NCBI RefSeq assembly: GCF_017348835.2
Contig: NZ_CP071375.1
Origin: Escherichia coli
Lineage (GTDB): Bacteria; Pseudomonadota; Gammaproteobacteria; Enterobacterales; Enterobacteriaceae
Length of the DNA stretch: 64,000 bases
Reading direction: 5' to 3' (one strand)
The position numbers and the translations under genes were made by a program. Below the pieces are notes generated by a model that worked only from the letters and a program-made list of their open reading frames with translations, was not told the DNA's origin and made no database searches. This document shows positions 53,539-54,766 of this stretch, piece after piece. Numbering within the stretch: position 1 is the first letter of the stretch; each line of letters begins with the position of its first letter.

Positions 53539-54766
53539 TTATCCTTTTACGCACACCACCTGACGTAGGGTGTAGATAACTTCCACCAGATCGCTTTGTG
53601 CCGCCATCACCGCATCAATATCTTTATACGCCATCGGGATTTCGTCGATCACTTCGGCATCTTTACGGCATTCCACATGCGCGGTGGCACGAATTTGGTC
53701 TTCCACGCTGAACAGTTTTTTCGCTTTAGTTCGGCTCATTACCCGCCCGGCACCGTGGCTGCACGAACAGAACGACTCTTCATTTCCCAGTCCACGAACG
53801 ATAAAGCTTTTTGCCCCCATCGAACCGGGAATAATTCCATATTGACCAGCACGCGCAGACACCGCGCCTTTACGCGTCACGTAGATCTCTTCACCAAAGT
53901 GCTGTTCTTTTTGCACATAGTTGTGGTGACAGTTGATCTCTTCCATCGCCAGCGTTTGTGGCTGTCTGACCGTTTTCTGCGTAATGCTCTGCAACGCCGT
54001 TACCACGTTTTCCATCATCGCATCGCGGTTAAGGCTGGCGAAAAGCTGCGCCCAGGCCACGGCTCTTAGGTAATCATCAAAGTATTCCGTACCTTCCATA
54101 AAGTACGCCAGATCACGCGACGGCAACGTCTCAAGTTGGTCCTGCATCTCTATTTTGCGCCAGATCGATAAAGTAAGTCCCGATGGCATTACCAATTCCG
54201 CGTGAACCGGAGTGCAGCATAATCCACACCTGGTCCGACTCATCAAGGCAGATTTCAATAAAGTGGTTACCCGTTCCCAGCGTTCCCAGGTGTTTATAGT
54301 TGTTAGTGTTAAGGAAACGCGGATATTTTTGCGTTAACCACTGATAACCGGCTTCCAGCTCAGCCCATTTCGCATCGACGTTAACAGGCGGATTTTCCCA
54401 TGCACCTTTATCACGTTTACAACGTCCGGTAGTACGCCCGTGCGGCACCGCAGTTTCAATCGCCTGACGCAGCTCCGCCAGGTTTTCCGGCAGGTCAGCC
54501 GCCGTTAAAGCGGTACGTAGTGCGTTCATTCCACAGCCAATATCCACGCCCACCGCCGCCGGAATAATCGCCCCTTTGGTCGGGATCACGCTACCAATGG
54601 TGGAACCTTTACCCAGGTGTACATCAGGCATTACCGCAATATGTTTGAAAATAAACGGCATCTTCGCCGTATTAATAAGTTGCTGACGCGCATCGGCTTC
54701 TACCGGCACGCCTTTGGTCCACATTTTTACCGGGGCATTTTCAGTGGTCAGTAATTCGTAATTCAT
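53539..54766 (-). pseudogene. rtcB: RNA-splicing ligase RtcB split by a +1 frameshift
   Basis: N-terminal 203 aa in ORF 54131-54766 and C-terminal ~205 aa in ORF 53539-54258, overlapping in different frames; junction near 54150 (context CTCTATTTTG). Confidence 0.8.

Follow-up and report, generated by a model that had tools for sequence, protein, structure and literature searches.

A single-base insertion makes rtcB a pseudogene in a small Escherichia coli lineage that keeps rtcR, rtcA and the sigma-54 promoter

[quoted passage not shown] In the RtcB enzyme, D75, C78, H168, H185 and H281 are metal ligands, while H337 is the histidine that becomes guanylylated, i.e., the site of GMP attachment. 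According to a report on E. coli, activation through RtcR requires RtcA as well as RtcB, and the two bind the CARF domain of RtcR (Kotta-Loizou et al. 2022, PMC9650030). In Salmonella, deletion of rtcB left expression of the operon standing and raised it additively with a deletion of pnp (PMC7790460).

We compared this module with the corresponding locus in the window, i.e., the whole 64,000-nucleotide stretch of E. coli DNA that was analysed. The window reads malT, a GNAT toxin/TacA antitoxin pair, rtcA, rtcB, divergent rtcR, glpR, glpG and glpE, and so has in common with K-12 the order glpR-rtcR, divergent rtcB-rtcA, then malT. The two also share the same sigma-54 element and an RtcR of 532 aa, and the RtcB encoded by the window, once repaired in silico, differs from that of K-12 at 4 of 408 residues. 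Unlike the window, K-12 has no +1 insertion in codon 205 of rtcB, its rtcA allele encodes 338 aa rather than 342 aa, and it is without the GNAT toxin/TacA pair between rtcA and malT. Further comparators are the rtcB pseudogenes of strains F2_81 and PE164, which carry the same T insertion as the window and are flagged 'frameshifted'. What we describe is therefore an ordinary loss of a known gene, already flagged in public annotation.

The rtcB pseudogene lies at 53539..54766 on the minus strand and measures 1228 nt, against 1227 nt in intact alleles. A sequence-only reading of the window, made before any database was searched, had described rtcB as split into two overlapping ORFs at 54131-54258, and this is borne out by the ORF list, in which two minus-strand ORFs of 211 aa and 239 aa overlap at exactly these positions. 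The N-terminal ORF occupies 54131..54766, and the C-terminal one is a mechanical ORF (53539-54258, minus strand) that reaches up to a TTG at 54258. Each half aligns with RtcB structures of the PDB, with best E-values of 8e-18 for the N-terminal and 1e-14 for the C-terminal half, and public gene calls assign Pfam PF01139 to each. The translations also agree with the frames that had been described, the N-terminal one running ...YFIDLAQ and then NRDAGPT-stop, and the other continuing ...KIEMQDQLETLPSRD.

Alignment to the intact allele of O157:H7 TR01 places a single indel in rtcB, an extra T on the gene strand (A on the plus strand) at 54152, in CAAAATAGAG (54157-54148), and K-12 and seven other alleles agree with TR01 on this indel. 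The junction at 54148-54157 and the extra A at 54152 had both been proposed from the letters, and the alignment confirms the exact base. The T sits between the second and third base of Lys codon 205, converting CAAAAAGAG into CAAAATAGAG. The +1 frameshift thus stands as first described, while the earlier figure of about 203 N-terminal codons needs correction, in that the native frame runs for 204 codons before the lesion, which interrupts codon 205 (AAA, Lys). The 211-aa ORF consists of residues 1-204 followed by the out-of-frame NRDAGPT and a TGA at 54133-54131, and it holds D75, C78, H168, H185 and R189. The native C-terminal frame (53539..54151, minus strand; residues about 205-408) carries H281, H337, R341 and R345 and no longer shares its frame with the start codon. 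Removal of the T in silico restores an uninterrupted 408-codon ORF with all of these residues, from D75 to R345, and the repaired 408-aa RtcB is an exact match to an intact E. coli protein found on at least 1000 contigs. As judged from these alignments and translations, rtcB is broken by one genuine inserted base and is a pseudogene of the PF01139 family, not a functional member of it.

A megablast search with the 1228-nt gene as query found rtcB in 4857 of 5426 complete E. coli genomes. Two matches, F2_81 (100%) and PE164 (99.9%), span 1228 nt, and the others among the matches listed span 1227 nt. A 61-nt query across the junction was matched at 100% in exactly 2 of the 5426 genomes, F2_81 and PE164. 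The former came from a pig rectal swab in Australia and the latter from a pig in Nanjing, China, and in both RefSeq already annotates the gene as 'RNA-splicing ligase RtcB, frameshifted' (CPH39_RS01550 and LZG51_RS01575, respectively). Compared with F2_81 the window has an identical rtcB and one SNP in rtcR (56304), and compared with PE164 it has one SNP in rtcB at a synonymous position (53671). Since the window differs by one SNP from each of the two, and at different sites, it is probably a third member of the frameshift lineage. The 64-kb window contains no MLST gene. Beyond the complete genomes, the exact 211-aa truncated product occurs on 29 contigs (NCBI, ENA, Logan), and each of the 24 contigs read among these (24/24) shows rtcB split into 211 and 216 aa, with rtcR intact and rtcA intact with one exception. 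The contigs read derive from separate runs and assemblies and include SRR17729764, ERR279342, SRR11949069, SRR13992753, GCA_900196605.1 and GCA_900195445.1. Searched for by exact 32-mers in JGI metagenome contigs, the rtcB junction was not found, so that no environmental range emerged, and a literature search for strain F2_81 yielded no relevant paper.

This distribution bears on whether the extra base is present in the DNA of the organism at all. The sequence-only reading had allowed for a homopolymer sequencing error, and an artefact of sequencing or assembly would fit the position of the lesion within an A-rich stretch and its occurrence in only 2 of the 4857 complete genomes that carry rtcB. 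However, what was inserted is a T, which breaks an A5 run (CAAAA[T]AGAG on the gene strand), not an extra A that would lengthen it. The identical lesion is found in an Australian and a Chinese complete genome and recurs on at least 24 contigs, drawn from separate runs or assemblies, and the sequences that bear it have distinguishing SNPs of their own. A homopolymer error would appear as a change in run length that does not reproduce, and the insertion shows neither property; this explanation is effectively refuted, and we regard the chance of an artefact of any kind as negligible.

As for the consequences, insertion of the T into Lys codon 205 within the A5 run would yield a polypeptide of 204 native and 7 wrong residues, terminated at the TGA described above. 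Such a truncated RtcB would retain the metal ligands D75, C78, H168 and H185 and be without H281 and the guanylylated nucleophile H337. The catalytic residues are indeed split between the two frames, with H281, H337, R341 and R345 lying downstream of the frameshift and not on the polypeptide that begins at the start codon. Because H281 and H337 are out of frame with that codon, no RNA ligase activity is expected from the frameshifted rtcB. Low-level re-initiation at Met207 or ribosomal frameshifting may nonetheless be compatible with the sequence, and we weighed both routes to residual function.

The first route would be a two-piece RtcB, in which the N-terminal fragment forms an active enzyme with a C-terminal one whose translation restarts at Met207 (or at the ATG at 54189). 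In the C-terminal frame, native Met207 has its ATG at 54145..54147 (minus strand), a possible re-initiation codon that lies 14 nt upstream of the premature TGA and so in reach of termination-reinitiation. Gene callers do report C-terminal products, of 202 aa (starting at Met207) in some public gene calls and of 216 aa in others, and the conserved blocks that can be aligned with known RtcB structures lie on either side of the break. Against this, reading of the sequence gave no well-spaced Shine-Dalgarno element before either ATG. The lineage also shows more damage to the module, i.e., an rtcA frameshift in one member and two nonsynonymous changes in rtcR, which in numbers this tiny runs opposite to what selection on a working system predicts. 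To our knowledge a split RtcB has no precedent, and we consider a functional one highly improbable. A scan of 53400-55000 for sigma-70 promoters found no sites, and thus gave no evidence of an internal promoter for the C-terminal fragment, and the two terminator-like matches inside rtcB equal the number expected from shuffles.

The second route would be a leaky allele, in which +1 recoding at ACU-UGA (54136-54131) allows a fraction of RtcB to be made at full length, with other residues at 205-211. The context reads GCAGGA-CCA-ACU-UGA-G, and ribosomes slipping by +1 at this point would return to the native frame at E212 and complete a protein of 408 aa; moreover, residues 209-210 vary between natural alleles (ET in K-12, DQ in the window), so the segment tolerates change. 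The site superficially resembles the +1 site of prfB (RF2) in having an in-frame UGA after a sense codon ending in U and an SD-like AGGA 3 nt upstream of the P-site codon. It differs in its P-site codon, which is ACU and not CUU, and by the prfB mechanism a tRNA-Thr slipping from ACU to CUU would pair poorly there. Nor is the site conserved among orthologues, being present in 2/4857 genomes; the absence of the frameshift from 4855 of the 4857 complete genomes with rtcB points to a mutation and not to a conserved recoding signal. Furthermore, the AGGA and the UGA are merely native sequence in another frame, and plain nonsense codons knock out rtcB in other lineages, which fits simple loss. We give leaky recoding very little credence. 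Transcriptional slippage was also considered as a means of rescue and was rejected, the A-run having just 4+1 bases and being broken by the T.

The remainder of the module had been read as intact, which holds for its promoter sequence and its ORFs with one nuance. The sigma-54 promoter of rtcBA (54803..54818, minus strand; TGGCAC-N5-TTGCA) reads TGGCACGACGGTTGCA at 54818-54803, matches the consensus perfectly and has the same sequence in K-12. No other perfect match to the consensus occurs in the 64 kb, where 0.07 would be expected by chance. Opposite to it, rtcR (54953..56551, plus strand) is a full 532-aa ORF for a sigma-54 activator with a CARF domain, with a Walker A motif GPTGAGKS at residue 215, GAFTGA at 265 and DEIGEL at 289, and with matches to PF06956 and PF00158. 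The nuance is a derived P151L change in the RtcR of the window (G to A at 55404), as compared with basal members of the frameshift lineage. With a -24/-12 element and a divergent AAA+ activator bearing a GAFTGA loop, the locus has the features that define an rtcBA operon under RtcR. A longer mechanical rtcR ORF (54785-56551, 588 aa), which begins at an upstream TTG and overlaps the rtcB promoter region, is an artefact of ORF calling, the annotated start being the ATG at 54953. For its part, rtcA (52507..53535, minus strand) is an intact 342-aa ORF for the RNA 3'-phosphate cyclase, whose start lies 3 nt beyond the rtcB stop codon and is preceded by an AGGA Shine-Dalgarno element of its own. Compared with K-12 it shows 15 substitutions and a C-terminus longer by 4 aa, and the active-site stretch HPSCHLLTN is identical.

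An intact set of remaining parts need not amount to a working response. About 590 nt of untranslated mRNA would now lie ahead of rtcA, and polarity could lower its expression. In addition, with RtcA and RtcB both reported as necessary for RtcR activation (PMC9650030), what is left of the module (promoter, rtcR and rtcA, all intact) can probably be induced only with difficulty or not at all without RtcB, an expectation drawn from the E. coli study only, the Salmonella result being less clear-cut.

Between malT and rtcA, at 51697-52457 of the window, lie genes for an antitoxin of the TacA family/DUF1778 (94 aa; 92 aa in RefSeq) and for a GNAT acetyltransferase toxin of 161 aa. The pair is present in F2_81, PE164 and O157 TR01 and absent in K-12, where the gap between malT and rtcA is 42 bp. 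TacT-family GNAT toxins acetylate charged tRNA, and at this locus a GNAT acetyltransferase toxin adjoins an RNA repair operon. On the other flank, glpR is intact in the frameshift lineage (252 aa; window 56533-57291) and is a pseudogene by annotation in K-12 MG1655 (L004 9849-10606), a known peculiarity of K-12.

The lesion had been thought recent, and in a relative sense this is supported. The repaired protein is the common intact protein, and of the 16 SNPs that separate the repaired rtcB allele from that of TR01, polarisation with K-12 assigns 6 to the window, all of them synonymous (6/6). Synonymous-only changes would mean that most of the branch leading to this allele was under purifying selection, and the zero amino-acid change accumulated in the repaired RtcB argues that the lesion is young compared with the allele. 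A lower limit on its age comes from variation within the lineage. At 55404 and 53020, two members, L006 and L009, still have the ancestral G in place of the A shared by the window and six others, and other members of the lineage have private changes. The retention of the ancestral G in these two implies that the insertion predates that split and has since spread to two continents. From such comparisons the frameshift is recent relative to the history of the allele, yet older than the sub-lineages of the small clone that includes the pig isolates. Among the complete genomes we found no close relative with an intact rtcB by which to date the lesion, the next-best genome being 98.6% identical for rtcB and 99.1% for the flank from rtcR to glpE.

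The changes that followed the frameshift are rtcR P151L, rtcR R451H, a +A frameshift in rtcA and two synonymous/silent changes. Both SNPs that arose in rtcR within the lineage are nonsynonymous, P151L (55404) being found in the window and most members and R451H (56304) in F2_81 and L007. These changes are compatible with relaxed selection on the whole module, in numbers far too small to show it. The rtcA change was seen in L008 (SRR11949069), where an extra A (locus 4232-5167, at about window 52678) truncates rtcA to 311 aa, and may be either further decay of the module after the loss of rtcB or an assembly error in one run. Other members of the lineage differ outside the module. In L005 (SRR17729764) a 1-bp deletion at about window 51465 splits malT into 61 and 845 aa, and in L010 (SRR13992753; locus 1-730) a rearrangement removes glpG, glpE and part of glpR, such that glpD now adjoins a truncated glpR. 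Taking the evidence as a whole, we are highly confident that a single-base insertion fixed in one lineage makes rtcB a pseudogene, with loss of the ligase and a module that is hard to induce as the expected outcome, and that the insertion is young relative to the allele and older than the diversification of the clone.

Loss of rtcB is not confined to this lineage. The gene is absent in about 569 of the 5426 complete genomes (~10%), and most of rtcR is absent in about 580. We also found other broken rtcB alleles, all in K-12-like backgrounds: the same A-run has gone from A5 to A6 in L012 and L014, and nonsense alleles are seen as K205* (L013), Y198* (L011), W238* (L015 and L016) and Q240* (L017), the last together with an rtcA split into 266 + 72 aa. 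Like the window, these loci have rtcB broken near the middle and keep rtcR and usually rtcA, and in L012 and L014 a +1 event within the A-run that is hit in the window likewise leaves an N-terminal product of 211 aa. Unlike the window, they carry other mutations, and their 40-51 nt differences from it and K-12-like backgrounds indicate that the lesions in L011-L017 arose independently of that in the window. These knock-outs were found via look-ups of two C-terminal fragments, a method biased to lesions just upstream of Met207 and Met251, so their apparent clustering is not evidence of a hotspot. With some 10% of genomes lacking rtcB and several independent knock-outs, the Rtc module is dispensable in E. 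coli and accessory to the species, and the sequences surveyed here indicate that rtcB loss is recurrent and ordinary in the species.

Recurrence raises the question of whether the loss has been positively selected rather than being neutral decay, e.g., because repair by the ligase might counteract growth arrest based on toxins or nucleases. At least 6 other independent knock-outs of rtcB with rtcR retained, the share of complete genomes without the gene (about 10%) and the GNAT-toxin/TacA pair that adjoins rtcA in the frameshift lineage would all be in keeping with selection. However, the public collection is very large, and a few rare knock-outs are expected in it for any dispensable gene; the look-ups favoured lesions near Met207 and Met251; and the alleles are rare, with 29 contigs for that of the window against at least 1000 for the identical intact protein. 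We therefore think it unlikely that the loss was selected. The more specific proposal that RtcB loss is recurrent and selected in strains that gain from having RNA re-ligation switched off, e.g., through the adjacent GNAT-toxin module, or in its weaker variant that the allele is leaky via the ACU-UGA shift or a two-piece enzyme, strikes us as quite improbable. Ordinary loss of rtcB remains the preferred reading.

The significance of this finding beyond the annotation of the strains is small. What it identifies is a small E. coli clone, including Australian and Chinese pig isolates, that is naturally without RtcB and keeps rtcR, rtcA and the sigma-54 promoter. The lineage offers ready-made natural rtcB mutants, usable for testing the need for RtcB in RtcR activation, and such mutants could show if the Rtc response is of consequence in the pig gut or when antibiotics target the ribosome.
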